This document shows positions 279-44,985 of a stretch of 64,000 bases of DNA, piece after piece. The notes under the pieces are model-generated. The model was not told the origin of the DNA, made no database searches, and worked only from the letters and a program-made list of their open reading frames with translations. This DNA comes from Marsupella aquatica. Taxonomy: Eukaryota > Plantae > Marchantiophyta. Numbering within the stretch: the first letter of the stretch is position 1; every line of letters begins with the position of its first letter. Location: assembly GCA_973895155.1 (NCBI GenBank), contig OZ316898.1:15406330-15470329 (forward strand), written 5' to 3'. Made by a program: the position numbers and the translations under genes.

Positions 279-3200
279 TGTGATGCCTAGACAGGAATCA
301 CTCGGCCGGTTAAGTGGGTAAAGCAGGAAGGCACCCTAGGAACACCTTAGTATAGGGACAAAACAAGGAAAATATAAACAATTAGGGGCAACCATGGAAC
401 CCGGGCAGAGGCCGGAGGTAAGGCTGAGGGTGAAAACCCGATTAGGGTTAGGGCGCGTTAAGCGTCGGCGGCTAGGAAGGATCAACGGGAAGAAGGACCG
501 ACAGAGGAGAGGGGTAAGGAGCGCTTGCAGGAGATGGTGGCTCATTTGCGAGCACGAACTAGGCAGACGACTACGGGAGGCCAACTACTGTCAACTGCTT
601 AGGCAAGCACTCGGGGAGAGAATAGATACCGACGATCGACCTAAGGAGGGTATGAGCAACGTCAATCAAGCGGCACATTTCTGGGGATGCTTGTTCGAAC
701 GGGCAACTGAGTACATCAAGACTTACGAGGACGAGGAGTCAGAAAGGGCAGCTCGAGAACGGCAGGAGCTCGCTCGATTGTGGGAGCTGCAGAAGACGGC
801 TTTCTTAGGAGGCGAACTCATCAAGGACGAGTTCCTGTGGACGCCTACTTCCAATCAACTCGACGATCTTCTGTTTTGCAAAGACAGCGTCGTCGGCATC
901 CAAGAGGCCATCAAGAACTGCAACGACATACACTGGGAATTAAAGGGTAGCACAGAAAGGTGGACCCAGGCAACGGTGCTAGGAGAAACCTCCACGGCAG
1001 CAGAGATGAAGAGGAAGGGGGCCGTCAACGATGAAGCCACCCCGGCAAAAAGAACGAGGTCGGCGGCACCAAAGAGGCCAGCCGAGCAGCAGAGCAGGAG
1101 GCAGGGAGAAGCCGAAGAGGAGGAGGTCGATCCCATCAAGGCCATTCCAACCAGGGATGACACCTGGAAGGGCTGGGCGGCAACCCTACCGGTGGAGGTG
1201 CAACTACATTTTGCACGGGAGGAGGATGCATGCTTTACGGCCATGCAGACCAAGAAGTACCAAGGCTTCATGGCCGGATCCGGCTTAGAGGCCTTTGTAA
1301 GATTACCATGGCTGAAGCCGGAGGTACCGGAGTCAGACCTATTAGAATTCGTGGGGTCATGGGAACCCGAGACCAATTGCACGAGGATATATGGGAAGGA
1401 TTTCTATCTTACTCCCAAGGTAATTGCCGAAGTGTTTGGCTTGCCGATAGGCAATAAGACCAAAGTTGATACCAGGAAGACCTTGCCTGACAAGGAGTTC
1501 CGGTCGTTCCCCGGGCCATCAACGAAGAATGGCTTCTTCCGGAACACCTGCACCAACCCGCACATAGGAGAGATGATCGACTTCTTGCGGTTGACCATGC
1601 ATTGTAACTTGCCGAGGGCAGAGATCGGCAAGGCACAGGTATATCTGGCAGAAAGGCCAGACCCAAGCCGGGACTACAACGGGTACCTCCTCAACCAATT
1701 GAAGAAGATCTTAAAGGAGGAGCAGTAGGTAATCGGCATGGGGAGCGTGTCGCGGCTTGGCTATCACATGCCGCTGTTGTGCCGGTATGCCAGAGGTCAG
1801 ACTTTTGCCCCGGTACTTCCCCTGCAGGTAAGGGCACCCGAGGAAGCTCCAACGCCGAGGCCGTTGGCTGAGAAGCCTCAACCACCTGTTAGTCCTACGA
1901 TCGAGCAGGTGTTTAGGCCCAGGAAGGAAGACTTGCCGATGCAGCAACCAGGCATGCAGAGTCTACTGAAACTACTGGAGAAAGAAAAGAAATCGGCATC
2001 GGCAACAACAACGGCAACGGCAACAATGTAGGACACTACTACAGAGGTAGGCCTACACCGGCTCACAAGAGAAAACCCCTTTGCTGGAGACAAGGAGAGA
2101 ATCAGGCCGGAATCCAAGCCAGGTGTTCGAATGTACGTGGGAACCTCAAGCTCCGAATCTGAGGCAGAATTGCCTGAAGCTCCTACCGACGAAGAGGAGA
2201 GGGAGAAGCCGGACGTCCAAGAGGTAGAGGAGGCAGTGGAGGACTGCAGCCATGATAATTCCGGCTATGGGTCGGACCATCACGTTCCAGGAGTAAGGAC
2301 CTGTGGCCGGTTTGTCCCCACACTTCCAAGGGTAGTGCGAGGGGACCCCAACCAGCAGATTTGCCCTGAGTCTCCCCCACCAGATGTTGCTCCCCCGAGC
2401 TTCGACGGCATAAAACAGACGGTGCAGGAATTTCAGGAGCGAATCAAGCAGGAGGAGGAGGCCGCCCTGGCTAAGGAAAAGGATTTACCAGGAGGAGATT
2501 GGCCGGAGGACATCAGGCGGCTAGCCGAAAAAGGAAGCAAACCTCTAGCCACGATTGAAGAGATCCGCAGGACGGCTTGGGAGCAGAGGCCACGATGGGC
2601 GATGCCGATCACTTCTACTTACTCCACCTACGCTAAGAATAGAGCCATGGAGTATGGTGAGATGTGTGGGGAACTTGCGCTCGGCATCTTTGGAGAGGAG
2701 TTGGAGGTAGGACCCTTTTTCCATAGGGAGCAGTTGGAGAAGCACCAATTAGAAGAAGCGGTGGCTTTAGAGAGAAGCAAGAAGGACGAGGTCATTCGAC
2801 GGCTTAGGAGGATGGAAGCCGAGATTGAAGATCTAAGGGCGGCCAAGAAAGCCCAAGATGAACTGCGGATTAAACGACATGAGCTGAACATCATGCAGGG
2901 GCAGTTGGACACCGCGCAGGCTGATAATCAGAATATCAAGGATAAACTGACTCAGACGCAGGAAGAGTTGGCCGACACGATCAAAGAGAGGGAGAAGTGG
3001 AAGCAAGAGCTGAAGAATACAGAGGAGGCCCACATAACAGCCAACAGCCGGGCCATGGCGGAGACCCAAAGAAAGGAATGGGCGTTGAAAGGGGAGCTCG
3101 AGAAAATCCGCGGAGCCCTTGAGCAGAAGGAGGTCGAGTTAGGGAAATCCTATCAAGGGATTATGGCACTGCAGCAGGAGCTTGCGTCCCTGACGGCCAG

Positions 3201-4903
3201 CTTCAAGGCCGACCTAAGGGAGAAGGACGAGATGCTCGAACAGACTTACGCCAAGATGAACCAGATGGAGTCTGTCATCATTGCAGAGCTCGACAAGGAG
3301 CTAAGAGCAACCCAGGAGGAGAGGGCTACCTTGAAGAAGGAATTGGAGGAAGCCCACAGGGAGCAGGAGGAGGCCAAAAACGAGCTGGAGGGGGCACGTA
3401 AGGACCTGGATGAAACCCAAGAGGAGTTGGAGGAAATCACGAGGAAGATGGAGGACCTACAGCGGCGGGCCGACAACCAAACAGAGTGGCTGAAGAAACA
3501 AGCCGCAGTATTTAAATGCTTAGCTGCAGCAGGTCCATCTCCCGTTGGGACAAACCAGTTACCAGGGGTGGTAATTGCCGAAGGACAAGCCGCGCCACCT
3601 GCACCAGTGCCGGAAGTAAGTGGGAAGGGGAAGGGACCAGCTGCCGAGCCACCAACGAAGAAGAAGCGGAAACCTTCAGGGTCAAGGAGTAATACGACTT
3701 CACAGGCCGTGGTGATCAAGGAGGTAGACCCAGCACCGACCCCAGACAGGGTCACGGCTAGGGATCCAACTACCCTAGGGGAAGGGGAGGCCGAAGCCGA
3801 GGGAGTGGTTGAGGCCGAAGCCGTGGGTATTGCCAAGGCCGGTGTCGAGGCTGAAGCCGAAGGTGGACCCAGTCAGGCCGATGGAGAGTTGACTCAGTCA
3901 AGGGCAGGTAATCTGTCAGAGAATGAACCTACGGCAGTGGCTGAGGAGGAAGCGTTGGGGGCGTCCATGAAGGATCCACCACCGGTGTCGTGACGGTGCA
4001 AGGGCGCCGTTCCTTTTAGGGAGGGCGGATGTGGAGGGAGGAGGCGTGAGTGGGCAGGGCGGGCGCGGATCTCCACGTTTAGGATTAGGATCAGAACCAG
4101 GAGCGGCCCTGACACTTAGCTTAGTGGGATTGCGGTCCCACTGGTAGGAGCAACACTTGTGCTCCTGCCTTGCTGTACATAGGTAGATTCGGGCAAGTAG
4201 ATTACTGTTAAGTAGATTAGGCTTACGATGCAAAGAATGGCGGATCCACTACCAGGATAAGTACCTGGGCAGCGGGGAGCTCAGTAGCAAGTTTTTAGTT
4301 TGCACCAGCCGGGCTGGGATCAAGTAGTACGAGAAGCTCTCGGTTAGTCATACAGTGACCCTTGTGTATATTCATGTTTCCTCATGCCTAAGAGCTGAAT
4401 AGAGTTGGCCTCACGGCTTAGTTCGCAGAACTTGTGTATGAAATGTACTGTTTGTATGGCAAGTGCATGGTATGACTCAGTCAGAATGAGTCATTTTGCT
4501 ATTTGTGTGTCGCATTAACTTGTGTGAAGAGTGCCCACATCAACAGAAGGAAGGAAAGTAAGCAGGGGAGTGAGAGTTGGATGTGTCGAGCTGAGAGAGG
4601 TCTTAGCGGCTTAACCAAGCCTATTGGGGATCATTCCGGCGGCGGAATCCAAACATACCTAACAAGACGGAGGGGAAGACAGGGGAAGACAGGGGAAGGC
4701 CTATATTAGGCCGGCTACGTATCTCATGACCCGATGAAGGATCTGTCCAGTATATGTGTGTAAAATGTTAATAGTAGTAGTAGAAAGTTAGCAGCGTCCC
4801 ATGCCGCTAAGCCGCGGAAACGGCCTCGCCAAGCACGAAACCTGCGGGAATCGGCTTGAGCTGGGGGGTTTCTTGGGTTTAGGGAGCCATGGGACGCACC
4901 ACA
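279..4903 (+). repeat. 5' LTR (~4.6 kb)
   Basis: Starts TGTGATGCC right after the TSD, ends GCACCACA before TTTT-TGGCGCTAG (PBS). Matches 11128-15751 with roughly 25-30 differences counted by eye. Confidence 0.96.
394..3993 (+). pseudogene. LTR-encoded protein, 5' LTR copy (ancestral ~1,199 aa; plant-transposon-protein/Transposase_32-like domain plus long coiled coil), two in-frame TAG stops
   Basis: ORFs 394-1728, 1738-2031 and 2131-3993 share one frame. TAG at 1726-1728 is CAG in the 3' LTR, and TAG at 2029-2031 is CAG in the copy at 17114-19255. Motif GLEAFVRLPW...LLEFV...IYGKDFYLTPKVIAEVFGLP and an E/K/Q-rich heptad region. Start context ACCATGG. Confidence 0.85.
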
Positions 4904-4907
4904 TTTT

Positions 4908-4924
4908 TGGCGCTAGATGGAGGG
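4908..4924 (+). promoter_or_regulatory. Primer-binding site, probably tRNA-Asn(GUU)
   Basis: TGGCGCTAGATGGAGGG lies 4 nt after the LTR. It is complementary, with one mismatch, to the plant tRNA-Asn 3' end CCCTCCTTCTAGCG-CCA as I recall it. Confidence 0.75.
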
Positions 4925-4972
4925 GGCATTTCTTAAGCCGTGAGATATGAAGTTAGAACGGAAGCGTAGGTA

Positions 4973-7966
4973 ATGACTGACCTTACGCCGAGGGAAGAAA
5001 GAGTGATTCAACGGGAGAGAGCTCGACTGCAGCAGCTCGCCGGGTGGCATGATACACAGCGACTGAGAGGGGCAGAAAGAGCTGGTAGCTCCGAAACTGG
5101 AAGTGGCGTCGAAGAAGACATACCAGAAGAAGAGTCGGTAAGGAGAAGTGAGTCTCCAACCGACATGGGGGAACCAGAGGCACGGCCAGACGAGAGGCCA
5201 GGGACCAGATTGAGCCAGCGGTCGCGCATACATTACAAGGCATTTCATGGGAGAGGAGATGAGGATCCGGACGAATGGTTGGATGATTTCGAGGGAACCG
5301 CTGCAGCAAATGGAGAATCGGCCATCAAGATGCAGATTCTTCCCGGCCTGTTCAAGGGTGAGGCTAGGCCTTGGTACAGAGCATTAGATGTGGAAGATCA
5401 AGCCATCTGGGATATCTTCAAAACACTCTTTGTTAAGGAGTTTCGACCCATTGGAACTTCAGAACTAGCAGTGCTGAAGTTGGGACAACTTCGGTTCAAG
5501 GAGAACAAATCCTTCAGGAAGTTCTTGCAACGCTTTCAGAAACTGGTAAGACGTACAAAGACCAATGCATCTGAAGGTATGCAACTTCAATGGTTGGTGA
5601 ATGCTTTGCCACAGAAGATGAGTTTTGCAATTAGGAAGGAGAACCCGGAGACTTTAGCCGAAGCAATTAAGGATATTCAATTATACATTAATGCAGATAT
5701 CACAAGCCGGAAGAAACAGCTTAAGTCTGAGAGTTCCTCATCAGAGGAGGGATCACCCCATAAGAAAAAAGATAAGAAGAAGAAACATCCCAAGAAGTCT
5801 AGAAGTGATAAGTCAAGCTCGGATAGTGGGAGTAGCAAGAGTGAGTCATCTTCTAGTTCTGAAGAAGAAAAAACTAGGAAAAGGAAGGGCAGAAGGAGAG
5901 GGAAGACGAAAGTCAAGATGGAGGCTAAGCCACCAGATAACATCGTAGCCCTTACCGAGCAACTTAAGGCTATCATTGCAGAGGTAAAACCAAAGAAGAA
6001 GGTAGTACAGGAGGATAGCTCTGTATGGTGTGCCTTATGTTATAAAACCGGACACCATAAAGATGCGTGTCCTAAGCTTAATACTAATCATGTTCGGCAT
6101 GTGGCCGAGATCAGACCATGTCAGGGAGAAGTAGAGTACTTTTTGGGAGATGCCGCTGATAGTGTTTTCGGCATCAGTGAGACTGGAGCACGAGACCTAT
6201 CCAACAGACCTGCATCTCTGTGGTCAGGGTTAAGGAACAATCCAGGAGAGATGTATCCTCGGATTATTCAGAACCCGTCAGTACCTCCTAGGCCGAATGT
6301 GCAAAGATTTGCGGCGTGCTATAATTGTGGTCAACCTGGCCATTTTGCTAGAGAATGCCCGAATGCACGCAAACAGGGTGATGGACAACCAGCTCAGCTA
6401 TGTATGGGATGCCGACAGGAAGGTCATATGCTAGGGCAATGTCCTACTTGGTTGGCAGGCCTGGCCGCAAATCATAAGCTTTTGCCGATCAAGATCTTAC
6501 CGCCAGGTACTACCCCCGGAGGAGTTCAAATCAACCACATCGAACTAGGATGGCAAGAGGATGCCAAGGCAGAGTTCGTACCATCTGATGATGAGGCCGA
6601 AGCCCTATCAACCTTCTCAGAGGAGGATTTAGATCATGATTGCTACCGGGTCTCTACTCGATCTACCAGAAGGAAGGAAAGGTGGGATGGGCTGGCCAAA
6701 AATAAAGGGAAGGTTACGGAGGAAAGGATCGACTCTTCGTCAACATCAACAGAAGGAGAAGGGAGGGCTCCGGCAATACAGGTAAGCCATGAGCCCACCA
6801 GTGAAACCAATCCTTCACAAGATAGCGACTTCAATCGAGATCATCCTAAGTTGTTCTACCCCTCTGTTACGGCTAGTGTTAAGGAACAACTAAGAGAATT
6901 AGAAACCCTGGAGAATACCGAAGCCATTGCCAAGGATGTAAAACGAGCAAAAGCATTGTTTGCTTCGGAAGACCCAACAGCTGTGGAGACTAGCGTGGCA
7001 AAACTGGCCGAATCCAAGACGGAAACACCACCAGAAGAGAAGCCGATTGTTCCCTATGACCTGGCTAAAGATGTACTAGAATCTAGAGTCTCGGCAACAG
7101 TAGGTCAACTATTGAAAAATAGCCCGTACTTCCGGAAGCAATTAAGGAAGGCTATTCTCGGCAAGCCGAGATTACCCAAGGTAGCAACCAGATCCGACCT
7201 ACTAATGATAGAAGAAGATCAAGGAGCCCCAGCATTACCATTAATGATTCAAGGAGAATTATTACTACGGGTACCCATCGATGGAGGATCAGGGGTATGT
7301 ATTATGATTGATTCAACAGCAAAAGGGTGGGGTCTAACATCGGAGATGACTGGAAGAGTGTTGAACATGGCCAATGGATATCAGGTCATTCCAACGGGAG
7401 TGTTAACCGGCATCAAGACAGAGATAGGAGGTATCTTCTTTAGCATTAACTATGTAGTAATGAAGCCGGTAAATCCTACGTCATTCCGGCTATTGATTGG
7501 TAGGCCATGGCTGTACCTAGCCGAGGTAATAGAAGATTGGGGTAAAAAGTAGTTCACTTTCGGGACCCCCTCTATCACGGTATCCTGGGACACTAAGGAT
7601 GACCGTAGGAAAAGCATAAGGGAAGTAGATGGGTACGACAGTGGACTGGAGTCAGCCGATGAAGTACGTTGGTTAGAATGCCTCACTAACCTAACCGAAG
7701 AAGGTGTCTTTGGACCAGAGGTACCCCCCAGCGGATTATGGCAAGAACCAATGGAAGGTGACTTGGAAGAAGAAGACGAAGAGGTCGAGGACTGCTTTAC
7801 AATAGAATCCACCTTTTTAGCTACAATTCCGGAGGAAGTAAAGGATGTAGACCAATTGGATGAAACGGCTAAGTGGGGAGCAGTAGCAGGGACAGTGGAT
7901 TTTCTGCAGGCGTTGTGGCAGAGCCGACGGGGTCCACAACGCCATCGATCATCGGCAAGGAATTAA
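4973..7966 (+). CDS. gag: Gag-protease ORF (capsid, three CCHC zinc knuckles, aspartic protease), one in-frame TAG at 7550-7552
   Basis: FHGRGDEDPDEWL...GEARPWY gag motif. Knuckles CALCYKTGHHKDAC, CYNCGQPGHFAREC, CMGCRQEGHMLGQC. Protease IDGGSG...LLIGRPWL. The frame continues past the TAG into ORF 7751-7966. Confidence 0.9.
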
Positions 7967-10900
7967 ATACCAAGGGATCGGCATACAAGCCGATTACGAG
8001 GGCAGAACAAATTGAGGCCCTATTAGAAGCCGAGAGAGCACAACGGCCTAACTCTCAGGAGCAAGAAGTGGATGAGATGGATAGACACGATCCAGAGCCA
8101 AGGCAGGAAGGGGAGCCGACCACTAATTCAAAACCGAATAGACCAGTAAGGGGACAATCTATGGACACCAAGGAAGGGACCGACTCGGCTAGTCCAGCCG
8201 AGATCCCAGTTTATGGAGGTATGAGATTAGAGAGACTGGAAGCCGAACTGGACCCGAATTTGAAGAAGCAGATTAATATGATCCAAGCACGGCAATATCG
8301 GAAGCTCGACTTAGGAGAGGGAAGAGAACTGAACTTAGGGAGAAACCTAGCACCTGAGCTCGAGAAAGAGATCAGTGACTTATTGATTGAATTTCAGGAT
8401 GTGTTTGCATGGAGTCACCAAGATCTAAAGGGAGTAGATCCAACACTAGGGGAACATCGAATTGATCTCATGTTAGGAGCCAAATCATTTCGACAACCAA
8501 TTCGAAGGATGAACCCGAAGTATTCCCTGCTGGTCAAAACAGAAATCGACAAACTAGTGGAAGCTGGATTCATCACTCCAGTCCTGCATTCAGACTGGGT
8601 GTCTCCAATTGTGATAGTTCCCAAGAAAGCTGGACCCGATGGTAAACCCAAGATCCGGGTTTGTCAGGATTACAGGAAGCTGAATGAAGCAACATTAAAA
8701 GACCATTTTCCTTTACCGTTTACTGATATGGTACTAGACATGGTAGCCAGTCATGAACTATATTCATTCATGGATGGATACTCTGGTTATAACCAAATCA
8801 GGATTCGGCAGGAAGACCAAATCAAGACGGCCTTCATCACGGAATGGGGGATCTATGTCTTCAATCGTATGCCGTTTGGACTCTGCAACGCACCAGCTAT
8901 GTTCCAACGATTAATGGTGAACATTTTTCATGATTACTTGAGAAAGTTCATGGAAATCTTCATTGATGACTTTGCAGTATTCGGGAAGGCATCGAAACAT
9001 GCTAAATACCTCAGGAAAACCTTCATGAGATGTAGGGAGGTGGGTCTCAAGTTACACCCAGATAAATGTTTTTTTGCAGTAACCGAGGGGGTGCTACTAG
9101 GTCACAAGGTATCAAGGAAGGGCATTGAGATTGACAAAGGTAAGCTAGCAGTATGGCTAGATATCATGCAACCTAAGAACATAAAGGATGTAAGATCCTT
9201 CTTGGGATGCATTGGTTACTATCGCCGGTTCATCAAGGATTTTGCCAAGCTGGCTTTACCATTAACCAATATGCTCAAGGCAGGAGCAGACTTCGAACCC
9301 ACACCCGAACGAGTCACAGCGGTGGTAGAATTGAAGCAGATGTTAGTAGAGGCCCCAGTCATGATAGCACCGGACTGGAACAAAGATTTTCATGTTTTTG
9401 TAGATGTCTCGGGCTTCTGTATTGGCTCAGTACTAAGTCAGTTGGATGAGAAAGGAAGGGACCATCCCATATACTTCGCAAGCCGTCAGCTTGCCGATGC
9501 CGAACGGAACTACTCTACCACGGAAAGAGAAGCATTAGGAGTCATTTATTCTTGTAAAAAGTTTAGGCATTATTTACTAGGGTACAAGGTAATCTTTCAT
9601 ACTGATCATGAAAGTTTAAAGTACCTAGTCAATAAGCCGGACCTTACAGGCAGAGTAGCAAGATGGATTTTGCTATTACAGGAGTTTGACTATGAGCTGA
9701 GGATCAAGCCGGGAAAGTTACATGCCAATGCCGACTTCTTTTCAAGGATCACAGGTAAACCTGCCACGGATTGCATCGATGATCGATTCCCCGACGAGGA
9801 GCTATTCGTTGTGGAAATAGCTGGTACATGGTACCCTGAGATTTTACAATTTCTCAGCACTTCCAGATTACAGCCAGGATTAAGCCGAGAGCAAGCCGCA
9901 GTCTTTGTGCGGAAGGTCAGACAGTATCAGTGCATTAAAGGCATACTGCACAAGCATGGAATCAACGACACGATTCAAAGATGTTTGGAAAAGATAGAGG
10001 TAAAACGAGTCCTACGGGCCATGCATGGAGAGGAGGCCGGAGGACATTTTGCCCCAGTAACCACGTCTAAGAAGATATTAAATGTCGGTTACTGGTGGCC
10101 CACCTTGCACAAAGATGTCTATCAGTTTATCAAACAATGCGATCCTTGTCAACGAGCGGGAGGACCAAGGGCGTCCACCAGGCATCCACTGCACCCTATT
10201 CTACCTCTGGCACCATTCGAGAAGTGGGGTATTGATTACATTGGACCTCTGAAACCACTGACCCACCCTCGACGGAACAAGTACATAATCCTGGCTACGG
10301 ATTATGCAACTAAATGGGTAGAGGCCAGACCAACAACGAAGGATGATGCAATTACTACGGCTAGATTCATGTATGAGCAGATCTTCACCAGGTATGGAGC
10401 ACCCCTAGAATTAGTTAGTGATAGAGGAACCCATTTTTTGAATGATATAATTAGTCGTTTAAATGAGCAGTATTTAGTTAAACATAGGCCTACTACTCCC
10501 TACCATCCAAAGGCAAACGGGTTGACAGAACGAGCAAACGGAATCATAGGAAAGATATTGAACAAGACAGTAGCTCAGAACAAACTCGATTGGGATGATA
10601 AATTGTTTGCTGCTGTTTTTGCTTACAATCTTGCCTATAAATCCACTACCGGTCATACACCCTTCTTCTTAACCTTTGAACAAGAAGCCCTGGTACCCAT
10701 GCAACTTGAGATACCGACATTTCAAGTTACAATTGAGGAAAGAGCCTCAGCGGAGGAGAGCCTAAAGGAGCGAGAATATAGGTTAGAAGCTTTAGAGGAA
10801 GCGAGAATGATTTCAGCCGAGAGAGTAGAATATAGACAGAATATCATGAAGCAGCAGTATGATAAAAGGTTAAAAGTAGTTAGTATTCATACCGGTGATC

Positions 10901-11139
10901 TTGTGCTACTTTATGACAGTAGGTATAGTAGGTTTCCAGGAAAGCTTTACACTCGCTGGTTAGGACCCTTTAGAGTAACCATGATGTTCCCCAATGGCTC
11001 CGTACAATTGGCCAACATTACGGGAGAGGTATATCCAGTTCGCATCCATTATGACCGCCTCAAGAAATACTATATGGACGAAGATAAAGTTGTTCGCAAG
11101 GACGCTTCACAATTAAGTGGGGAGCTATGTGATGCCTAG
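7873..11139 (+). CDS. pol: Pol: reverse transcriptase, RNase H, integrase (open frame)
   Basis: RT: RVCQDYRKLN, DGYSGYNQI, MPFGLCNAP, FIDD. RH: DVS...EREAL...TDH...ADFFSR. INT: HHCC, GIDYIGP, SDRGTHF, NGLTER, WLGPF. The stop codon lies inside the 3' LTR. Confidence 0.97.
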   Translation: MGSSSRDSGFSAGVVAEPTGSTTPSIIGKELNTKGSAYKPITRAEQIEALLEAERAQRPNSQEQEVDEMDRHDPEPRQEGEPTTNSKPNRPVRGQSMDTKEGTDSASPAEIPVYGGMRLERLEAELDPNLKKQINMIQARQYRKLDLGEGRELNLGRNLAPELEKEISDLLIEFQDVFAWSHQDLKGVDPTLGEHRIDLMLGAKSFRQPIRRMNPKYSLLVKTEIDKLVEAGFITPVLHSDWVSPIVIVPKKAGPDGKPKIRVCQDYRKLNEATLKDHFPLPFTDMVLDMVASHELYSFMDGYSGYNQIRIRQEDQIKTAFITEWGIYVFNRMPFGLCNAPAMFQRLMVNIFHDYLRKFMEIFIDDFAVFGKASKHAKYLRKTFMRCREVGLKLHPDKCFFAVTEGVLLGHKVSRKGIEIDKGKLAVWLDIMQPKNIKDVRSFLGCIGYYRRFIKDFAKLALPLTNMLKAGADFEPTPERVTAVVELKQMLVEAPVMIAPDWNKDFHVFVDVSGFCIGSVLSQLDEKGRDHPIYFASRQLADAERNYSTTEREALGVIYSCKKFRHYLLGYKVIFHTDHESLKYLVNKPDLTGRVARWILLLQEFDYELRIKPGKLHANADFFSRITGKPATDCIDDRFPDEELFVVEIAGTWYPEILQFLSTSRLQPGLSREQAAVFVRKVRQYQCIKGILHKHGINDTIQRCLEKIEVKRVLRAMHGEEAGGHFAPVTTSKKILNVGYWWPTLHKDVYQFIKQCDPCQRAGGPRASTRHPLHPILPLAPFEKWGIDYIGPLKPLTHPRRNKYIILATDYATKWVEARPTTKDDAITTARFMYEQIFTRYGAPLELVSDRGTHFLNDIISRLNEQYLVKHRPTTPYHPKANGLTERANGIIGKILNKTVAQNKLDWDDKLFAAVFAYNLAYKSTTGHTPFFLTFEQEALVPMQLEIPTFQVTIEERASAEESLKEREYRLEALEEARMISAERVEYRQNIMKQQYDKRLKVVSIHTGDLVLLYDSRYSRFPGKLYTRWLGPFRVTMMFPNGSVQLANITGEVYPVRIHYDRLKKYYMDEDKVVRKDASQLSGELCDA
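7897..7956 (+). promoter_or_regulatory. Putative programmed -1 ribosomal frameshift signal
   Basis: G GAT TTT (7897-7903) is in the gag-PR frame within the overlap with the -1 pol frame. After a 5-nt spacer comes a perfect 10-bp stem, GGCGTTGTGG (7909-7918) / CCACAACGCC (7934-7943). Loop GCCGA can pair with TCGGC (7952-7956). Confidence 0.75.
11115..11127 (+). promoter_or_regulatory. Polypurine tract
   Basis: AAGTGGGGAG(CTA) directly before the TG of the 3' LTR, inside the last pol codons. Confidence 0.8.
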
Positions 11140-14100
11140 ACAGGAATCACTCGGCCGGTTAAGTGGGTAAAGCAGGGAGGCACCCTAGGAACACCTTAGT
11201 ATAGGGACAAAACAAGGAAAATATAAACAATTAGGGGCAACCATGGAACCCGGGCAGAGGCCGGAGGTAAGGCTGAGGGTGAAAACCCGATTAGGGTTAG
11301 GGCGCGTTAAGCGTCGGCGGCTAGGAAGGATCAACGGGAAGAAGGACCGGCAGAGGAGAGGGGTAAGGAGCGCTTGCAGGAGATGGTGGCTCATTTGCGA
11401 GCACGAACTAGGCACACGACCACGGGAGGCCAACTACTGTCAGCTGCTTAGGCAAGCACTCGGGGAGAGAATAGATACCGACGATCGACCTAAGGAGGGT
11501 ATGAGCAACGTCAATCAAGCGGCACATTTTTGGGGATGCCTGTTCGAACGGGCAACTGAGTACATCAAGACTTACGAGGACGAGGAGTCAGAAAGGGCAG
11601 CTCGAGAATGGCAGGAGCTCGCTCGATTGTGGGAGCTGCAGAAGACGGCTTTCTTAGGAGGCGAACTCATCAAGGACGAGTTCCTGTGGACGCCTACTTC
11701 CAATCAACTCGACGATCTTCTGTTTTGCAAAGACAGCGTCGTCGGCATCCGAGAGGCCATCAAGAACTGCAACGACATACACTGGGAATTAAAGGGTAGC
11801 ACGGAAAGGTGGACCCAGGCAACGGTGCTAGGAGAAACCTCCACGGCAGCAGAGATGAAGAGGAAGGGGGCCGTCAACGATGAAGCCACCCCGGCAAAAA
11901 GAACGAGGTCGGCGGCACCAAAGAGGCCAGCCGAGCAGCAGAGCAGGAGGCAGGGAGAAGCCGAAGAGGAGGAGGTCGATCCCATCAAGGCCATTCCAAC
12001 CAGGGATGACACCTGGAAGGGCTGGGCGGCAACCCTACCGGTGGAGGTGCAACTACATTTTGCACGGGAGGAGGATGCATGCTTTACGGCCATGCAGACC
12101 AAGAAGTACCAAGGCTTCATGGCCGGATCCGGCTTAGAGGCCTTTGTAAGATTACCATGGCTGAAGCCGGAGGTACCGGAGTCAGACCTATTAGAATTCG
12201 TGGGGTCATGGGAACCCGAGACCAATTGCACGAGGATATATGGGAAGGATTTCTATCTTACTCCCAAGGTAATTGCCGAAGTGTTTGGCTTGCCGATAGG
12301 CAATAAGACCAAAGTTGATACCAGGAAGACCTTGCCTGACAAGGAGTTCCGGTCGTTCCCCGGGCCATCAACGAAGAATGGCTTCTTCCGGAACACCTGC
12401 ACCAACCCGCACATAGGAGAGATGATCGACTTCTTGCGGGTGACCATGCATTGTAACTTGCCGAGGGCAGAGATCGGCAAGGCACAGGTATATCTGGCAG
12501 AAAGGCCAGACCCAAGCCGGGACTACAACGGGTACCTCCTCAACCAATTGAAGAAGATCTTAAAGGAGGAGCAGCAGGTAATCGGCATGGGGAGCGTGTC
12601 GCGGCTTGGCTATCACATGCCGCTGTTGTGCCGGTATGCCAGAGGTCAGACTTTTGCCCCGGTACTTCCCCTGCAGGTAAGGGCACCCGAGGAAGCTCCA
12701 ACGCCGAGGCCGTTGGCTGAGAAGCCTCAACCACCTATTAGTCCTACGATCGAGCAGGTGTTTAGGCCCAGGAAGGAAGACTTGCCGATGCAGCAACCAG
12801 GCATGCAGAGTCTGCTGAAACTACTGGAGAAAGAAAAGAAATCGGCATCGGCAACAACAACGGCAACGGCAACAATGTAGGACACTACTACAGAGGTAGG
12901 CCTACACCGGCTCACAAGAGAAAACCCCTTTGCTGGAGACAAGGAGAGAATCAGGCCGGAATCCAAGCCAGGTGTTCGAATGTACGTGGGAACCTCAAGC
13001 TCCGAATCTGAGGCAGAATTGCCTGAAGCTCCTACCGACGAAGAGGAGAGGGAGAAGCCGGACGTCCAAGAGGTAGAGGAGGCAGTGGAGGACTGCAGCC
13101 ATGATAATTCCGGCTATGGGTCGGACCATCACGTTCCAGGAGTAAGGACCTGTGGCCGGTTTGTCCCCACACTTCCAAGGGTAGTGCGAGGGGACCCCAA
13201 CCAGCAAAGTAGCCCTGAGTCTCCCCCACCAGATGTTGCTCCCCCGAGCTTCGACGGCATAAAACAGACGGTGCAGGAATTTCAGGAGCGAATCAAGCAG
13301 GAGGAGGAGGCCGCCCTGGCTAAGGAAAAGGATTTACCACGAGGAGATTGGCCGGAGGACATCAGGCGGCTAGCCGAAAAAGGAAGCAAACCTCTAGCCA
13401 CGATTGAAGAGATCCGCAGGACGGCTTGGGAGCAGAGGCCACGATGGGCGATGCCGATCACTTCTACTTACTCCACCTACGCTAAGAATAGAGCCATGGA
13501 GTATGGTGAGATGTGTGGGGAACTTGCGCTCGGCATCTTTGGAGAGGAGTTGGAGGTAGGACCCTTTTTCCATAGGGAGCAGTTGGAGAAGCACCAATTA
13601 GAAGAAGCGGTGGCTTTAGAGAGAAGCAAGAAGGACGAGGTCATTCGACGGCTTAGGAGGATGGAAGCCGAGATTGAAGATCTAAGGGCGGCCAAGAAAG
13701 CCCAAGATGAACTGCGGATTAAACGACATGAGCTGAACATCATGCAGGGGCAGTTGGACACCGCGCAGGCTGATAATCAGAATATCAAGGATAAACTGAC
13801 TCAGACGCAGGAAGAGTTGGCCGACACGATCAAAGAGAGGGAGAAGTGGAAGCAAGAGCTGAAGAATACAGAGGAGGCCCACATAACAGCCAACAGCCGG
13901 GCCATGGCGGAGACCCAAAGAAAAGAATGGGCGTTGAAAGGGGAGCTCGAGAAAATCCGCGGAGCCCTTGAGCAGAAGGAGGTCGAGTTAGGGAAATCCT
14001 ATCAAGGGATTATGGCACTGCAGCAGGAGCTTGCGTCCCTGACGGCCAGCTTCAAGGCCGACCTAAGGGAGAAGGACGAGATGCTCGAACAGACTTACGC

Positions 14101-15751
14101 CAAGATGAACCAGATGGAGTCTGTCATCATTGCAGAGCTCGACAAGGAGCTAAGAGCAACCCAGGAGGAGAGGGCTACCTTGAAGAAGGAATTGGAAGAA
14201 GCCCACAGGGAGCAGGAGGAGGCCAAAAACGAGCTGGAGGGGGCACGTAAGGACCTGGATGAAACCCAAGAGGAGTTGGAGGAAATCACGAGGAAGATGG
14301 AGAACCTACAGCGGCGGGCCGACAACCAAACAGAGTGGCTGAAGAAACAAGCCGCAGTATTTAAATGCTTAGCTGCAGCAGGTCCATCTCCCGTTGGGAC
14401 AAACCAGTTACCAGGGGTGGTAATTGCCGAAGGAAAGCCGCGCCACCTGCACCAGTGCCGGAAGTAAGTGGGAAGGGGAAGGGACCAGCTGCCGAGCCAC
14501 CAACGAAGAAGAAGCGGAAACCTTCAGGGTCAAGGAGTAATACGACTTCACAGGCCGTGGTGATCAAGGAGGTAGACCCAGCACCGACCCCAGACAGGGT
14601 CACGGCTAGGGATCCAACTACCCTAGGGGAAGGGGAGGCCGAAGCCGAGGGAGTGGCTGAGGCCGAAGCCGTGGGTATTGCCGAGGCCGGTGTCGAGGCT
14701 GAAGCCGAAGGTGGACCCAGTCAGGCCGATGGAGAGTTGACTCAGTCAAGGGCAGGTAATCTGTCAGAGAATGAACCTACGGCAGTGGCTGAGGAGGAAG
14801 CGTTGGGGGCGTCCATTAAGGATCCACCACCGGTGTCGTGACGGTGCAAGGGCGTCGTTCCTTTTAGGGAGGGCGGACGTGGAGGGAGGAGGCGTGAGTG
14901 GGCAGGGCGGGCGCGGATCTCCACGTTTAGGATTAGGATCAGAACCAGGAGCGGCCCTGACACTTAGCTTAGTGGGATTGCGGTCCCACTGGTAGGAGCA
15001 ACACTTGTGCTCCTGCCTTGCTGTACATAGGTAGATTCGGGCAAGTAGATTACTGTTAAGTAGATTAGGCTTACGATGCAAAGAATGGCGGATCCACTAC
15101 CAGGATAAGTACCTGGGCAGCGGGGAGCTCAGTAGCAAGTTTTTAGTTTGCACCAGCCGGGCTGGGATCAAGTAGTACGAGAAGCTCTCGGTTAGTCATA
15201 CAGTGACCCTTGTGTATATTCATGTTTCCTCATGCCTAAGAGCTGAATAGAGTTGGCCTCACGGCTTAGTTCGCAGAACTTGTGTATGAAATGTACTGTT
15301 TGTATGGCAAGTGCATGGTATGACTCAGTCAGAATGAGTCATTTTGCTATTTGTGTGTCGCATTAACTTGTGTGAAGAGTGCCCACATCAACAGAAGGAA
15401 GGAAAGTAAGCAGGGGAGTGAGAGTTGGATGTGTCGAGCTGAGAGAGGTCTTAGCGGCTTAACCAAGCCTATTGGGGATCATTCCGGCGGCGGAATCCAA
15501 ACATACCTAACAAGACGGAGGGGAAGACAGGGGAAGACAGGGGAAGGCCTATATTAGGCCGGCTACGTATCTCATGACCCGATGAAGGATCTGTCCAGTA
15601 TATGTGTGTAAAATGTTAATAGTAGTAGTAGAAAGTTAGCAGCGTCCCATGCCGCTAAGCCGCGGAAACGGCCTCGCCAAGCACGAAACCTGCGGGAATC
15701 GGCTTGAGCTGGGGGGTTTCTTGGGTTTAGGGAGCCATGGGACGCACCACA
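11128..15751 (+). repeat. 3' LTR (~4.6 kb)
   Basis: TGTGATGCC...GCACCACA, followed by TSD TCCCC. Confidence 0.96.
11243..14841 (+). pseudogene. LTR-encoded protein, 3' LTR copy (TAG at 12878-12880; 1-nt deletion near 14434)
   Basis: ORFs 11243-12880, 12980-14467 and 14365-14841 reproduce the 5' copy. GGACAAGCC versus GGAAAGCC shows the frameshifting deletion. Confidence 0.85.
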
Positions 15752-15756
15752 TCCCC

Positions 15757-16775
15757 TCAAGCGGAAGTTGCTGATTTTGGACCTTAATAAAATACTTTGG
15801 GATTCTATTGAATTCCAAAGCAAGGGCACATCCAGGAATATTGTCACCTCAAGTGGAGTGCATTGGGATAGATCAAATGGAACTAGTCGCATGTATACAG
15901 AGAGGCCACGGCTCCATGAGTTTCTAAAGTTGGTTTTTGACCGGTTTGACGTTGCAATTTGGACATGTGCTGGGATGCCGCGAACAGTGAAAATGTTGAA
16001 CATGATGTTCACAATTGAGGAGCGGTTGAAACTGAAGTTTGTATTCACACAGGTGGAAGCCTTTGACACAGGCATTCAAAGGCGTGACGTTACAAATGGA
16101 AAGGCAAATGTGCTATTGAAGGATTTTCGGGTGGTATGGAGTGCATTTGGAAATCTATATGATGAAACCAACACACTCCTTGTGGATGACTCCCCCTTGA
16201 AGGCATTTGCCAACCCAGACATGACCGCACTATTTCCAGTGCCCTACACGCATGCCAATCGTGGAGACAATTTTCTTCTAACAATTCTTTGGCCATGTCT
16301 TGAGAAACTGTCACATGCAAGTGACATTCGTTGTTATCTTCTCCTAAACTCTCCAAAGTGGTCTCTATTGCACATTAAGAGAGACAAGGCAAAAAATGAG
16401 ATTACTTATGATCAACTTAGTAAGAGATGTGCAGCAAAAATTTGGAAGTCACAGTATAGGCATAGTGTGCTGGACCTCAATAGCAATGAGATTCCTTGGG
16501 CTGTGAAGCACCGTATATGTAGCTTACGTCCTGAGGTGGAACTTGACAATGCACTTGTCACCTCACTTGCTAGATCATTTGTAGGACGGGAATATTCAGG
16601 TCTGTATAGAGAAAATCCCAGACACTTTTTGCGGGAGATTATAGCAGTTAGGAACAACACCACCAAATTTCATCTCCCTGAAGATAAAGGGAGTTGCAAC
16701 CGTGACATTAGGGTAGATAGTAAAGGAGACAAAGGCACGTGCTCAAATAAATATTGTAAGGAGCACTTTGTTTAG
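15757..16775 (+). pseudogene. FCP1/NIF (NLI-interacting factor) homology HAD-phosphatase-like gene, main body, insertionally disrupted
   Basis: KLLILDLNKIL, RPRLHEFL...FDVAIWT, LLKDFRVVW and NTLLVDDSPLKAFANP are FCP1-homology motifs. The DxD motif reads DLN. Confidence 0.8.
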
Positions 16776-17035: not shown

Positions 17036-17150
17036 AAAGTGTACATTTAGGTATCAAAAAGTGTATATTTGGGCTTCGTAAAGTGTACATTTGGGGACAT
17101 AAAAGTGTACATTTCAGGACTGATTTGTGAACAAAAGAAAATACACTTTT
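17036..17150. repeat. Short tandem array of AAAGTGTACATTT motifs at the break point of a truncated LTR
   Basis: About 4 direct copies of aaagtgtaYattt at ~20-23 nt spacing, plus one inverted copy near 17140. Confidence 0.7.
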
Positions 17151-19255
17151 AATGAATAGGCTGATAAATCCTTTTCCCTGGCCAGGGCTGCCTTCTCTTC
17201 CTGCCTGATTCGCTCCTGAAATTCTTGCGCCATCTGTTTTATGCCGTCGAAGCTCGGGGGAGCAACATCTGGCGGGGGAGACTCAGGGCTACTCTGCTGG
17301 TTGGGGTCCCCTCGTACTACCCTTGGAAGTGTGGGGACAAACCGGCCACAGGTCCTTACTCCTGGAACGTGATGGTCCGACCCATAGCCGGAGTTATCAT
17401 GGCTGAAGTCCTCCACTGCCTCCTCTACTTCTTGGACGTCCGGCTTCTCCCTCTCCTCTTCGTCGGTAGGAGCTTCAGGCAATTCTGCCTCAGATTCAGA
17501 GCTTGAGACTCCCACGTACATTCGAACACCTGGCTTGGATTCCGGCCTGATTCTCTCCTTGTCTCCAGCAAAGGGGTTTTCTCTTGTGAGCCGGTGTAGG
17601 CCTACCTCTGGAGTAGTGTCCTGCATTGTTGCCGTTGCCGTTGTCATTGCCAATCTCTTTTCTTTCTCCAGTAGTTTCAGCAGACTCTGCATGCCTGGTT
17701 GCTGCATCGGCAAGTCCTCCTTCCTGGGCCTAAACACCTGCTCGATCGTAGGGCTAACAGGTGGTTGAGGCTTCTCTGCTACCGGCCTCGGTGCTGGAGC
17801 TTCCTCGGGTGCCCTTACCTGTAGGGGAAGTACTGGGGCAAAAGTCTGACCTCTGGCATACCGGCACAACAGCGGCATGTGATAGCCAAGCCGCGACACG
17901 CTCCCCATGCCGATTACCTGCTGCTCCTCCTTTAAGATCTTCTTCAATTGGTTGAGGAGGTACCCGTTGTAGTCCCGGCTTGGGTCTGGCCTCTCTGCCA
18001 GATAGACCTGTGCCTTGCCGATCTCTGCCCTCGGCAAGTTACAATGCATGGTCACCCGCAAGAAGTCGATCATCTCTCCTATGTGCGGGTTGGTGCAGGT
18101 GTTCTGGAAGAAGCCATTCTTCGTTGATGGCCCGGGGAACGACCGGAACTCCTTGTCAGGCAAGGTCTTCCTGGTATCAACTTTGGTCTTATTGCCTATC
18201 GGCAAGCCAAACACTTCGGCAATCACTTTGGGAGTAAGATAGAAATCCTTCCCATATATCCTCGTGCAATTGGTCTCGGGTTCCCATGACCCCACGAATT
18301 CTAATAGGTCTGACTCCGGTACCTCCGGCTTCAGCCATGGTAATCTTACAAAGGCCTCTAAGCCGGATCCGGCCATGAAGCCTTGGTACTTCTTGGTCTG
18401 CATGGCCGTAAAGCATGCATCCTCCTCCCGTGCAAAATGTAGTTGCACCTCCACCGGTAGGGTTGCCGCCCAGCCCTTCCAGGTGTCATCCCTGGTTGGA
18501 ATGGCCTTGATGGGATCAACCTCCTCCTCTTCGACTTCTCCCTGCCTCCTGCTCTGCTGCTCGGCTGGCTTCTTTGGTGCCGCCGACCTCGTTCTTTTTG
18601 CCGGGGTGGCTTCATCGTTGACGGCTCCCTTCCTCTTCATCTCTGCTGCCGTGGAGGTTTTTCCTGGAACCGTTGCCTGGGTCCACCTTTCCGTGCTACC
18701 CTTCAATTCCCAGTGTATGTCGTTGCAGTTCTTGATGGCCTCTCGAATGCCGATGACGCTGTCTTTGCAAAACAGAAGATCGTCGAGCTGATTGGAAGTA
18801 GGAGTCCACAAGAACTCGTCCTTGATGAGTTCGCCTCCTAAGAAAGCCGTCGTCTGCAGCTCCCACAATCGAGCGAGCTCCTGCCATTCTCGAGTTGCCC
18901 TTTCTGATTCCTCGTCCTCGTTAGTCTTGATGTACTCAGTTGCCCATTCGAACAGGCATCCCCAGAAATGTGCCGCTTGATTGACGTTGCTCATACCCTC
19001 CTTAGATCGCTCGTTGGTATCTACTCTCTCCCCGAGTGCTTGCCTAAGCAACTGACAGTAGTTGGCCTCCCATAGTCGTCTGCCTAGTTCGTGCTCGCAA
19101 ATGAGCCACCATCTCCTACAAGCGCTCCTTACCCGTTCGGCCTTCCGGTCCTTCCTCCCGTTGATCCTTCCTAGCCGCCGACGCTTAACGCGCCCTAACC
19201 CTAATCGAGTTTTCACCCCCAGCGTCCTTACCTCCGGCCTCGGCCCGGGTTCCAT
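17114..19255 (-). CDS. LTR-encoded protein, uninterrupted N-terminal ~700 aa, 3'-truncated
   Basis: The 713-aa ORF reads through both positions that are stops in the intact element's LTRs. Its indels relative to those copies preserve frame. Confidence 0.85.
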   Translation of the reverse strand: MEPGPRPEVRTLGVKTRLGLGRVKRRRLGRINGRKDRKAERVRSACRRWWLICEHELGRRLWEANYCQLLRQALGERVDTNERSKEGMSNVNQAAHFWGCLFEWATEYIKTNEDEESERATREWQELARLWELQTTAFLGGELIKDEFLWTPTSNQLDDLLFCKDSVIGIREAIKNCNDIHWELKGSTERWTQATVPGKTSTAAEMKRKGAVNDEATPAKRTRSAAPKKPAEQQSRRQGEVEEEEVDPIKAIPTRDDTWKGWAATLPVEVQLHFAREEDACFTAMQTKKYQGFMAGSGLEAFVRLPWLKPEVPESDLLEFVGSWEPETNCTRIYGKDFYLTPKVIAEVFGLPIGNKTKVDTRKTLPDKEFRSFPGPSTKNGFFQNTCTNPHIGEMIDFLRVTMHCNLPRAEIGKAQVYLAERPDPSRDYNGYLLNQLKKILKEEQQVIGMGSVSRLGYHMPLLCRYARGQTFAPVLPLQVRAPEEAPAPRPVAEKPQPPVSPTIEQVFRPRKEDLPMQQPGMQSLLKLLEKEKRLAMTTATATMQDTTPEVGLHRLTRENPFAGDKERIRPESKPGVRMYVGVSSSESEAELPEAPTDEEEREKPDVQEVEEAVEDFSHDNSGYGSDHHVPGVRTCGRFVPTLPRVVRGDPNQQSSPESPPPDVAPPSFDGIKQMAQEFQERIRQEEKAALAREKDLSAYSLKVYFLLFTNQS

Positions 19256-19370
19256 GGTCGCCCCTAATTGTTTATATTTTCCTTGTTTTGTCCCTATACT
19301 AAGGTATTTCTAGGGTGCCTTCCTGCTCTACCCCCTTAACTGGCCGAGTGATTCCTGTCTAGGCATCACA
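17162..19370 (-). mobile_element. Truncated LTR (5' ~2.2 kb) of the same Gypsy family, inserted into the first exon of the CACTA gene
   Basis: Reverse complement of TGTGATGCCTAGACAGG ends at 19370. Homology stops near 17162. Confidence 0.93.
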
Positions 19371-19372
19371 CT

Positions 19373-20558
19373 CCTCTAGGCCCCATTCCATGTTGGTGTG
19401 TGCGATGTAAGGGAATGGTGGTTTGTCAAGCTTGGGAGTGTATTGAGAATTATGGGCAACACCAACCTGATTTACCAGGACATTCAGCTCGCCAGGTATG
19501 CACCCCATACTCTCACCCCACACATTTTGAAGGAAACATAATTTGCCACTTACAATCATGGCCACTATCATCATATATTTATTAATTTTGGATTTTTTTT
19601 GAATGAATAGGTGCCCCGTAGGCCCCCTCCTCCATTGATCTCCAAAGAGCTATGGCTAGACACATTCTTGGCTAGTTCAAGGCGGATGCTTGCATCAACA
19701 TCTACACCCCCTCCTCCTGCCCCGCACCCCAATGGTGAGGGTGGGAGTATACCTGTAGCAAGGGTGGAGGACATTGAGCAAGGTGACCTGGAGGTACCTC
19801 CATCTAGGGTTTTACGCACCCACCCACGCTGGAGACATTACAAACCATTGGGCACTCGTGAGTCTCAAGACCCAAACTTGGTAGGTCCGCCTATGATGAA
19901 GCCAGGTGAGGGTTATGTGGTAGTGGAGGGTAGGTTGGGATTGTCATATCTCACTGGAAAGGCGTTGTCTCTTGTGAAGGACTTCTCATCTGAGATATTC
20001 AAAATCCCTCAAGGCATACCCACTAATGCCCCTATAGAGATATGGGGCCGTCATTGGATAGTGCAGTCATCTTCCCTTGGTGTTGATGTAGGATTTGGGT
20101 TATTTGCTTTGGAGGACATTGTGGTCCATCCAAAGCCATGGCGAAGAGGTTATGATGGGGAACACTTATTTCCTTACATTGGCCCTATATACATTGCCAA
20201 GAATTGGAACATTATTTTGCGGCAACAACCATCATGGGGAGTGTATGCATTGCAAATGGATTCCAATCCGGATGAGGTCCTCAAGAGGCCTTGGCATTGT
20301 AGGATGATTGATGGTGATCCTGTGCAATGTGATAACATCGCTGGGTATATCAATAGTACCAAAGGGAGAGGACGAGGACTTCAACCAAATGTAGAGTGGG
20401 TTCAGATTTTTGGGGCACCGCCACCACCTTACTATGTCAAGCATATGGATGACCATGTTATGACTATAGCCATTAGGACTATTAGGGCTGGTGAGGAACT
20501 CTTTTGTGACTATGATTGGAACGCGCCTAAGATGGCCATACGGTGTTGTCCTTCATAG
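19373..20558 (+). CDS. SET-domain (putative lysine methyltransferase) gene: exon ~19373-19495 (CxCxxC zinc-ribbon-like) plus exon 19611-20558; start lost to the LTR insertion
   Basis: SET motifs GFGLFALEDI, PYIGPIY, NIAGYINST, PNVEW, IRTIRAGEELFCDY. Donor CAG|GTATGC at 19495/6 and acceptor TAG|GTG at 19610/1, both phase 0. Upstream exon reads PIPCWCVRCKG...ENYGQH. Confidence 0.85.
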
Positions 20559-27289: not shown

Positions 27290-27480
27290 AATTACTAGAA
27301 CTTACTAGAGTTAACTTTTTTACCACAATAAATTCTAGAACTTATTTTTTATCATGGTAAATTCTAGAAGTTACCGGAATTTACCTTTTTACTATGGTAG
27401 ATTCAAGAAATTACTATTTAATATGGTAGATTCTAGAAGTTACCAGAATTTACTTTTTTACTATGGTAAATTCTAGAATT
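27290..27480. repeat. Degenerate tandem repeats with TTCTAGAA cores (LTR U3-like)
   Basis: Repeated ttctagaa(g/c)ttacc...tttttactatggta units. Confidence 0.6.
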
Positions 27481-27509
27481 TATTAAAGTTATTCTTCATA
27501 TATTTTAAT

Positions 27510-44769: not shown

Positions 44770-44985
44770 ATGGGGGGGCGAGCAAAGCAGGAGGGCGCGA
44801 AGCCCTATGGAGGGGGGCGAGCGAGGCTGGAGGGCACGAAGCCCTATGGAGGGGGGCGAGCGAGGTAAGAGGGCGCGAAGCCCTATGGAGGGGGGCGAGC
44901 GAGGCTCATGCCTCCTTCATTCGCCACGGACGGGGGAGCAGGGGTGTCGGGGCCAGGAGGGGCGCGAAGCCCTATGGAGGGGGCT
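44770..44985. repeat. GC-rich minisatellite, 39-bp unit
   Basis: agggcgcgaagccctatggaggggggcgagcgagg repeated ~3.5 times, plus a partial copy. Confidence 0.9.

Follow-up and report, generated by a model that had tools for sequence, protein, structure and literature searches.

A slippery heptamer and the stem that follows it, placed after the protease of a Ty3/gypsy LTR retrotransposon, probably constitute a programmed -1 ribosomal frameshift signal that is conserved throughout the element's family, judging from the sequences of its copies. The element lies in a 64,000-nt stretch of DNA from the liverwort Marsupella aquatica, called here the window, whose positions are used throughout, with features on the plus strand unless stated otherwise. 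Gag and protease (PR) occupy one reading frame, reverse transcriptase (RT), RNase H (RH) and integrase (INT) follow in the -1 frame, and the coding constraint changes frame at the site itself. We infer from this arrangement that ribosomes translating Gag-protease would stall at the stem, a minority slipping back by one base at G_GAU_UUU into the RT-RNase H-integrase frame and producing a Gag-PR-RT-RH-IN polyprotein of about 2050 amino acids. The majority would terminate at 7964 and release Gag-PR of about 1000 amino acids, leaving the copying enzymes as the minor product.

A long Ty3/gypsy element and its two reading frames

The element is complete and 15.5 kb long (279-15751), presenting the LTRs with TG...CA ends, the target-site duplication (TSD) and the domain order gag-PR-RT-RH-INT of a Ty3/gypsy retrotransposon. 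Its 5' LTR (279-4903, 4625 bp) pairs with the 3' LTR (11128-15751) at 99.4% identity, the two copies of 4.6 kb each differing by 26 substitutions and one gap, and the same 5 bp stand immediately outside them at 274-278 and 15752-15756. The LTR identity, the TG...CA ends and the 5-bp TSD together point to a young insertion. A TGG motif directly after the 5' LTR (4908-4925) is a candidate primer-binding site, and no second internal copy of the element occurs within the 64-kb window. Among named proteins, those of the liverwort Calypogeia fissa are nearest, followed by those of Riccia, Marchantia, Adiantum and Selaginella, which points to a seedless plant as the likely host.

Large ORFs within LTRs are out of the ordinary, and both LTRs of this element carry two long in-frame ORFs of 563 and 653 codons (340-3993 and 11189-14467, plus strand). 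The stop between the two ORFs is common to both LTRs, each of which has one further private break. No Pfam family passes for these ORFs, and a feature search pointed weakly (scores 0.84-0.87) to the ATHILA, Transposase_32 and Transposase_28 clusters. A partial LTR copy on the minus strand (17114-19370, 95.5% identical) holds a 731-codon frame that crosses the place of the shared stop, and thus the two LTR ORFs may be a single gene of ~1200 codons in other copies. Older LTR fragments, from the same or a sister family, are found at 27547-28835 (72% identical) and 39908-41362 (80% identical). Immediately past the 3' LTR, a 355-codon frame (15708-16775, plus strand) encodes an NLI-interacting-factor phosphatase domain, into or beside which the element may have inserted; a 315-codon frame with a SET domain (19611-20558, plus strand) adjoins the partial LTR. 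The window also contains short tandem or dispersed repeat arrays (44773-45012, 42259-43158 and 27290-27496), with units of 39 nt, ~41-47 nt and 69 nt.

The Gag-protease ORF (4973-7966), which defines the 0 frame and has Retrotrans_gag and zf-CCHC matches, comprises 997 codons in the family layout and ends at the stop 7964-7966. In the -1 frame, the Pol ORF (7873-11139) is closed upstream by a stop at 7870-7872 and runs open to 11139, with domain matches identifying RT, RNase H and integrase after a linker, and its first AUG lies at 8077. The two ORFs overlap by 94 nt (7873-7966), in agreement with the ~90 nt of the original prediction, and the positions of the two stops dictate that any change of frame must fall between them.

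The location of the site between protease and RT, as first proposed, is borne out on both sides. Upstream, a retropepsin-type protease spans 7230-7520, with the codon for the catalytic-position Asp at 7280-7282 in a DGG motif. Pfam matches to this region are weak and occur in 6 of 14 aligned members, and a sequence search of solved structures gave no identification; fold comparison succeeded, the AlphaFold model (pLDDT 78.6) having Ddi1 and HIV-1 protease as its best Foldseek matches (E 1.7e-5 to 2.8e-5). From the protease, an acidic linker of about 115 codons leads to the slip site, and RT lies downstream.

The proposed slip site and its conservation among family copies

The heptamer GGATTTT occupies 7897-7903, divided by the gag-PR frame into G GAT TTT, and is followed by a 5-nt spacer (7904-7908) and a perfect 10-bp stem, stem 1 (7909-7918 paired with 7934-7943), whose pair probabilities range from 0.89 to 1.0; in all of this the original prediction was accurate. 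A stimulatory structure is expected 5-9 nt downstream of a slip site, and the -1 overlap, an X_XXY_YYZ heptamer (G_GA being allowed) in 0-frame phase and a stem beginning 5 nt past it are all present here. G_GAU_UUU is the sole in-phase slippery-type heptamer in the overlap 7873-7966, and of the 291 slippery-type heptamers on the plus strand of the window no other precedes a perfect stem of at least 10 bp. When 7873-8010 was shuffled 5000 times with dinucleotides preserved, the heptamer alone arose in 388 shuffles and the heptamer with a perfect stem of at least 10 bp in none. Folding z-scores lie between -1.3 and -3.8 across four folding windows, and stem 1 is well supported. A pattern scan of metagenome and viral contigs returned 150 loci that were rejected as chance matches, with 0 relatives by tblastn and 0 carrying the second stem arm, and a related-locus search found no relatives of the element in viral contigs or prokaryotic genomes.

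We sampled the family as assembled contigs from six runs, which carry four organism labels and derive from four studies; run X4 holds a contig identical to the window stretch and may be the window DNA's own source, and contig depth is not equivalent to copy number. These contigs bear on the claim that the gag-PR frame is open to 7966, which holds for the family and fails for the window copy, where a premature stop at 7550-7552 lies just past the protease core and upstream of the slip site. This stop is near-private to the window copy, since contigs of 4 of 4 runs carry a sense codon at 7550-7552, at 96.7-100% of depth. The window copy itself is thus likely unable to reach the slip site, which the family can reach, and it would depend on intact copies for Pol.

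The -1 offset is kept in the family contigs, so that PR and RT sharing one frame in other copies, the first of the findings by which the original prediction would have fallen, was not encountered. Among 349 contigs of 4 runs, no indel at 1% or more is listed in 7866-7990. One contig of 765 nt covers 7519-8283 gap-free, and another crosses the slip site gap-free despite 24 differences in 125 nt. Between 7400 and 8300, the listed rows contain no indels other than three deletions of one letter each, at 7846, 7848 and 7850, which occur at like depth in run X5 and sum to one codon; one of the three also occurs alone, at low depth, in run X3.

The heptamer shows no variant at 1% or more in the 4 runs. 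Invariance of this kind is not unique to it in the table, as 7866-7896 is also without a listed variant, partly since divergent contigs are clipped there. For the distribution of codon positions, we used 40 of the 149 difference rows (minus two rows at the 7550 stop) and all 13 rows of a second variant table. Of the 31 variable places listed upstream of the heptamer, 21 fall on the third codon position in the 0 frame and 2 on that in the -1 frame. Downstream, where 19 are listed, 13 fall on the third position in the -1 frame, as opposed to 5 on that in the 0 frame; among these listed places, the switch across the heptamer has a Fisher p of 4.3e-5. All but 2 of the 19 downstream places precede the first Pol AUG at 8077. 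Because the -1-frame bias begins ahead of this AUG, the Pol frame appears to be translated from just after the heptamer, which requires a fusion of the two frames by frameshift or by splice. The signal is kept across copies and the coding constraint changes frame at the site, findings that together support the -1 recoding first proposed.

The downstream structure and alternative routes to Pol

Within the loop of stem 1, GCCGA (7923-7927) is complementary to TCGGC (7952-7956), as predicted, and the two pentamers would form the arms of a stem 2, separated from stem 1 by a variable interstem loop of 6 nt (7928-7933) and a loop 3 of 8 nt (7944-7951) whose letters vary at constant length. The two stems of a classical H-type pseudoknot are separated by 0-1 nt, a near-adjacency that the 6-nt interstem loop does not provide. 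The H-type pseudoknot of the original prediction therefore stands in part: stem 1 is perfect and the loop complementarity is present, while stem 2 is suggested by the data and lies 6 nt away. We lean slightly towards such a pseudoknot, with its 6-nt interstem loop, over stem 1 alone as the stimulator. The latter reading, according to which frameshifting is real, stem 1 acts by itself or perhaps with the aid of a downstream hairpin or of a partner further away, and the encoded protein is what preserves the stem-2 match, is plausible if less probable, and it contests the pseudoknot and not the frameshifting.

Variation among the copies speaks to both readings. Counting variable places at 1% or more, we found 0 of 7 in the heptamer, 3 of 5 in the spacer, 1 of 20 in stem 1, 2 of 10 in stem 2 and 4 of 18 in the loops. 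In the -1 frame the stems are coding sequence as well, so that coding can mimic structural conservation; when the comparison was restricted to -1-frame third positions, a choice meant to lessen the influence of the protein, 1 of 10 stem places varied, with a G-U pair kept, compared with 4 of 6 in the loops (p=0.036). The two listed stem-2 variants, at 7927 (21-58% of depth) and 7953 (up to 2%), both leave G-U pairs, and the former does so although it alters the amino acid, which argues against conservation through the protein alone. In divergent loose contig ends, loops 2 and 3 differ in sequence yet hold their length, and 3 of the 4 homologous ends in which the 3' arm of stem 2 can be read have kept it. 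In one further end, the 3' arm of stem 1 is unchanged in all 10 of its places, and 5 of 7 letters differ in loop 3.

For stem 1 acting alone speak the interstem distance, the one of four loose ends that breaks stem 2, and the frequency of a 5-bp match between loop and downstream sequence by chance, which reached 6.2% of 5000 shuffles. A second hairpin (7976-7995, 7 bp, -10.6 kcal/mol) repeats both stem-2 pentamers and could sequester them. These repeats also make alternative pairings with 7923-7927 and 7951-7956 possible. Single-strand folding favours a nested helix of 3 bp within the loop over stem 2. For the window copy, nested folds gain 4.8-5.3 kcal/mol over stem 1 by itself and are competitors of stem 2, the stacking of which amounts to -11.5 kcal/mol with the pseudoknot penalty excluded. 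Against this, the nested helix is broken in many copies by a frequent change at 7932 (15-69% of depth), which stem 2 survives.

Of the conservation and covariation expected from the original prediction, the first was found, with the heptamer invariant in 4 runs and the stems mostly kept, and no compensatory double change on one molecule was seen in stem 1 or stem 2 among the family contigs. At 7912, a variant with 1-3% of depth disrupts pairing in stem 1 if the opposite base stays the same, and the opposite place has no listed row; a change there, whether on the same molecule or another, is present in one loose end of 2 contigs. One loose end alters three stem-1 places whose partners lie outside the sequence seen.

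Whichever structure stimulates it, frameshifting has its main competitor in splicing. In an Ogre-like partial splice, a 152-nt intron would run from a donor-like site (7758-7763) to an acceptor-like AG at 7908-7909 and fuse the 0 frame with the -1 frame, with the U run as pyrimidine tract, thereby accounting for the frame switch nearly as well. Heptamer and spacer can indeed be read as a pyrimidine run ending in CAG/G at 7909, the donor-like site is in the right phase and is one of three matches of at least 8/9 in the 6.2 kb between 4970 and 11130, and Ogre elements splice at the same PR/RT junction (PMC6317226). We nevertheless regard splicing as unlikely. The putative intron contains 22% U, like coding region, with 6 AG within the 45 nt preceding the acceptor, and 21 of the 224 YAG sites in the element are equally pyrimidine-rich. 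In divergent loose ends, the stretch is open and in register in the 0 frame up to the heptamer, the listed deletions summing to one codon, and the two letters on the exon side of the donor are altered in divergent contigs from 3 runs. Besides, stem 1 would bury the acceptor, splicing leaves unexplained a 10-bp stem 5 letters past an in-phase heptamer, and the Ogre ORFs are separated by a spacer rather than overlapping (PMC6317226). No joint ending at 7909/7910 is listed in the six runs, an observation given no weight because contigs drop rare forms. Skips of 7485-7572, 7786-7976 and 8057-8182, each in single contigs, were rejected as introns for want of GT..AG ends.

The two routes might also share their sequence, the 13 letters of 7897-7909 serving as a dual-use switch in which a -1 slip site coincides with a 3' splice acceptor, the AG is buried by stem 1 and RNA folding picks the route to Pol. 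We consider this improbable, more so than splicing by itself. If true, the family would represent an extant transitional stage at the protease/RT junction, with retrovirus-style frameshifting on one side and Ogre-style splicing on the other.

It is very unlikely that Pol is made separately, by ribosomes that reinitiate or initiate internally, be it near 8077 or from a codon other than AUG. The AUG at 8077, 113 nt past the 0-frame stop, does have a fair context, but the -1-frame third-position bias at 7929-8067 lies ahead of it, and the heptamer and stem would be left unexplained. Even less probable is polymerase slippage on the U run, adding a base in some transcripts and fusing the frames at the RNA level: the same fusion would be expected, yet the run has only 4 letters, and the DNA copies, to which such transcripts would give rise, have no listed indel at the site. 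The absence of a listed indel and the third-position switch upstream of the first AUG together weigh against both AUG reinitiation and a private indel. The least credible account is this private indel, arising in a dead copy with the motif a matter of chance, given that, for all that the window copy has another near-private lesion at 7550 and that PR and RT share a frame in distant relatives, the offset is common to contigs of 6 runs and 4 organism labels, the frame switch is recorded in substitutions and the motif arose in 0 of 5000 shuffles.

Relatives and known recoding systems

Programmed -1 frameshifting thus remains our preferred reading, and the relatives of the element suggest how its layout came about. 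In a quick, unrooted RT tree of 46 rows (45 of the 105 RT matches plus the window), the element groups with P0001 and the Calypogeia fissa protein P0158 (SH-aLRT 99), and its RT is 63-71% identical to the nearest rows. Its close counterparts include non-chromovirus Ty3/gypsy elements of seedless plants, namely Phygy, Selgy, P0001-P0005 and P0158. P0001 has gag, PR and RT all in one frame, and in 17 neighbouring rows a single ORF without gag begins before PR and covers PR and RT, labels that are rough insofar as gene-caller protein records can start late or be cut. Annotated Calypogeia proteins were left out when frame layouts were compared, as they may be spliced models. With PR and RT in one frame in the nearest relatives, the PR/RT split looks derived in the window family, and the recoding point would move within one lineage, its layouts being one ORF, gag / PR-pol and gag-PR / pol. 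A further lead comes from 5 of 105 protease-motif proteins (P0009, P0156, P0019, P0157 and P0117, in three clusters), which end in GS[KR]ELK after an acidic linker, 132-169 residues past the protease motif, possibly a conserved recoding end in a second family split after PR.

Among 15 Ty3/gypsy groups, none is listed with an overlapping GAG-PROT:o:RT as the prevailing layout; splits at this place are by spacer or stop only, and ORF overlaps are listed only between GAG and PROT, in Tcn1 and Selgy (Neumann 2019 Additional file 5, PMC6317226). In the available part of a 2025 review, frameshifting is treated in general terms and the plant cases are splicing only (PMC12786077); the accessible text of PMC5580714 likewise gives splicing cases only for plants. 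Our literature search found no report of a post-protease -1 frameshift in plant retrotransposons, although Neumann's per-element table may hold single elements with such a layout. The mechanism itself is textbook; its place after the protease in a plant retrotransposon is unusual, and the signal is probably functional. An excess of Gag over Pol in plant LTR retrotransposons is known mainly from splicing; a -1 site after the protease, built on a heptamer of plant viruses, would be a further mechanism, and one open to experiment. The element is also a warning for repeat annotation, in which such frameshifts get scored as decay.

The slip site of red clover necrotic mosaic virus, a dianthovirus, is G_GAU_UUU. 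The same heptamer, likewise decoded by plant ribosomes, belongs to pea enation mosaic virus RNA2, an umbravirus, and the available part of the source gives dianthoviruses as G_GA (PMC5009743). The umbra- and dianthovirus structure is described there as a bulged stem-loop with a partner kilobases away (PMC5009743, available part), whereas a local stem or pseudoknot is predicted in the window element. A long interstem loop has a parallel in Visna-Maedi virus, where one of 7 nt was shown by experiment (same source, PMC5009743, in the part available), against the 6 nt predicted here.

Among plant retrotransposons, the element resembles Ogre/Retand (Tat) in its split of GAG-PROT from RT-RH-INT, its length, its very long LTRs, its extra ORFs and its 5-bp TSD (PMC6317226). 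At the split, however, Ogre has a spacer intron or a single stop and Retand a single stop (PMC6317226), unlike the 94-nt ORF overlap of the window element. The second (archaeal) RNase H of Ogre/Tat was not found, a single RNase H region appearing among Pfam matches to E 0.1 with generic profiles, none of them aRH-specific. The overlapping ORFs and the lack of a second RNase H thus set the element apart from Ogre/Tat. Phygy and Selgy are short and have a 4-bp TSD (PMC6317226), so that the 5-bp TSD and 15.5 kb of the window element, which also has ORFs in its LTRs, do not make a typical member of either.

The arrangement has a parallel among the retroviruses of birds. Alpharetroviruses such as Rous sarcoma virus use a -1 shift between gag-pro and pol, so that protease is made with Gag (PMC4276931, available part), and the frameshift of beta- and deltaretroviruses includes one at pro-pol (PMC5009743, in the excerpt available). 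The layout would represent a convergence both on the alpharetrovirus arrangement and on the Ogre/Retand split. As in alpharetroviruses, protease would be produced with Gag, and RT and integrase through a -1 shift with a structure downstream (PMC4276931 and PMC5009743, as far as their available parts describe it). Unlike the retroviruses, this is a plant-type Ty3/gypsy element without env, with another heptamer, an acidic linker of ~115 codons and one shift rather than two.
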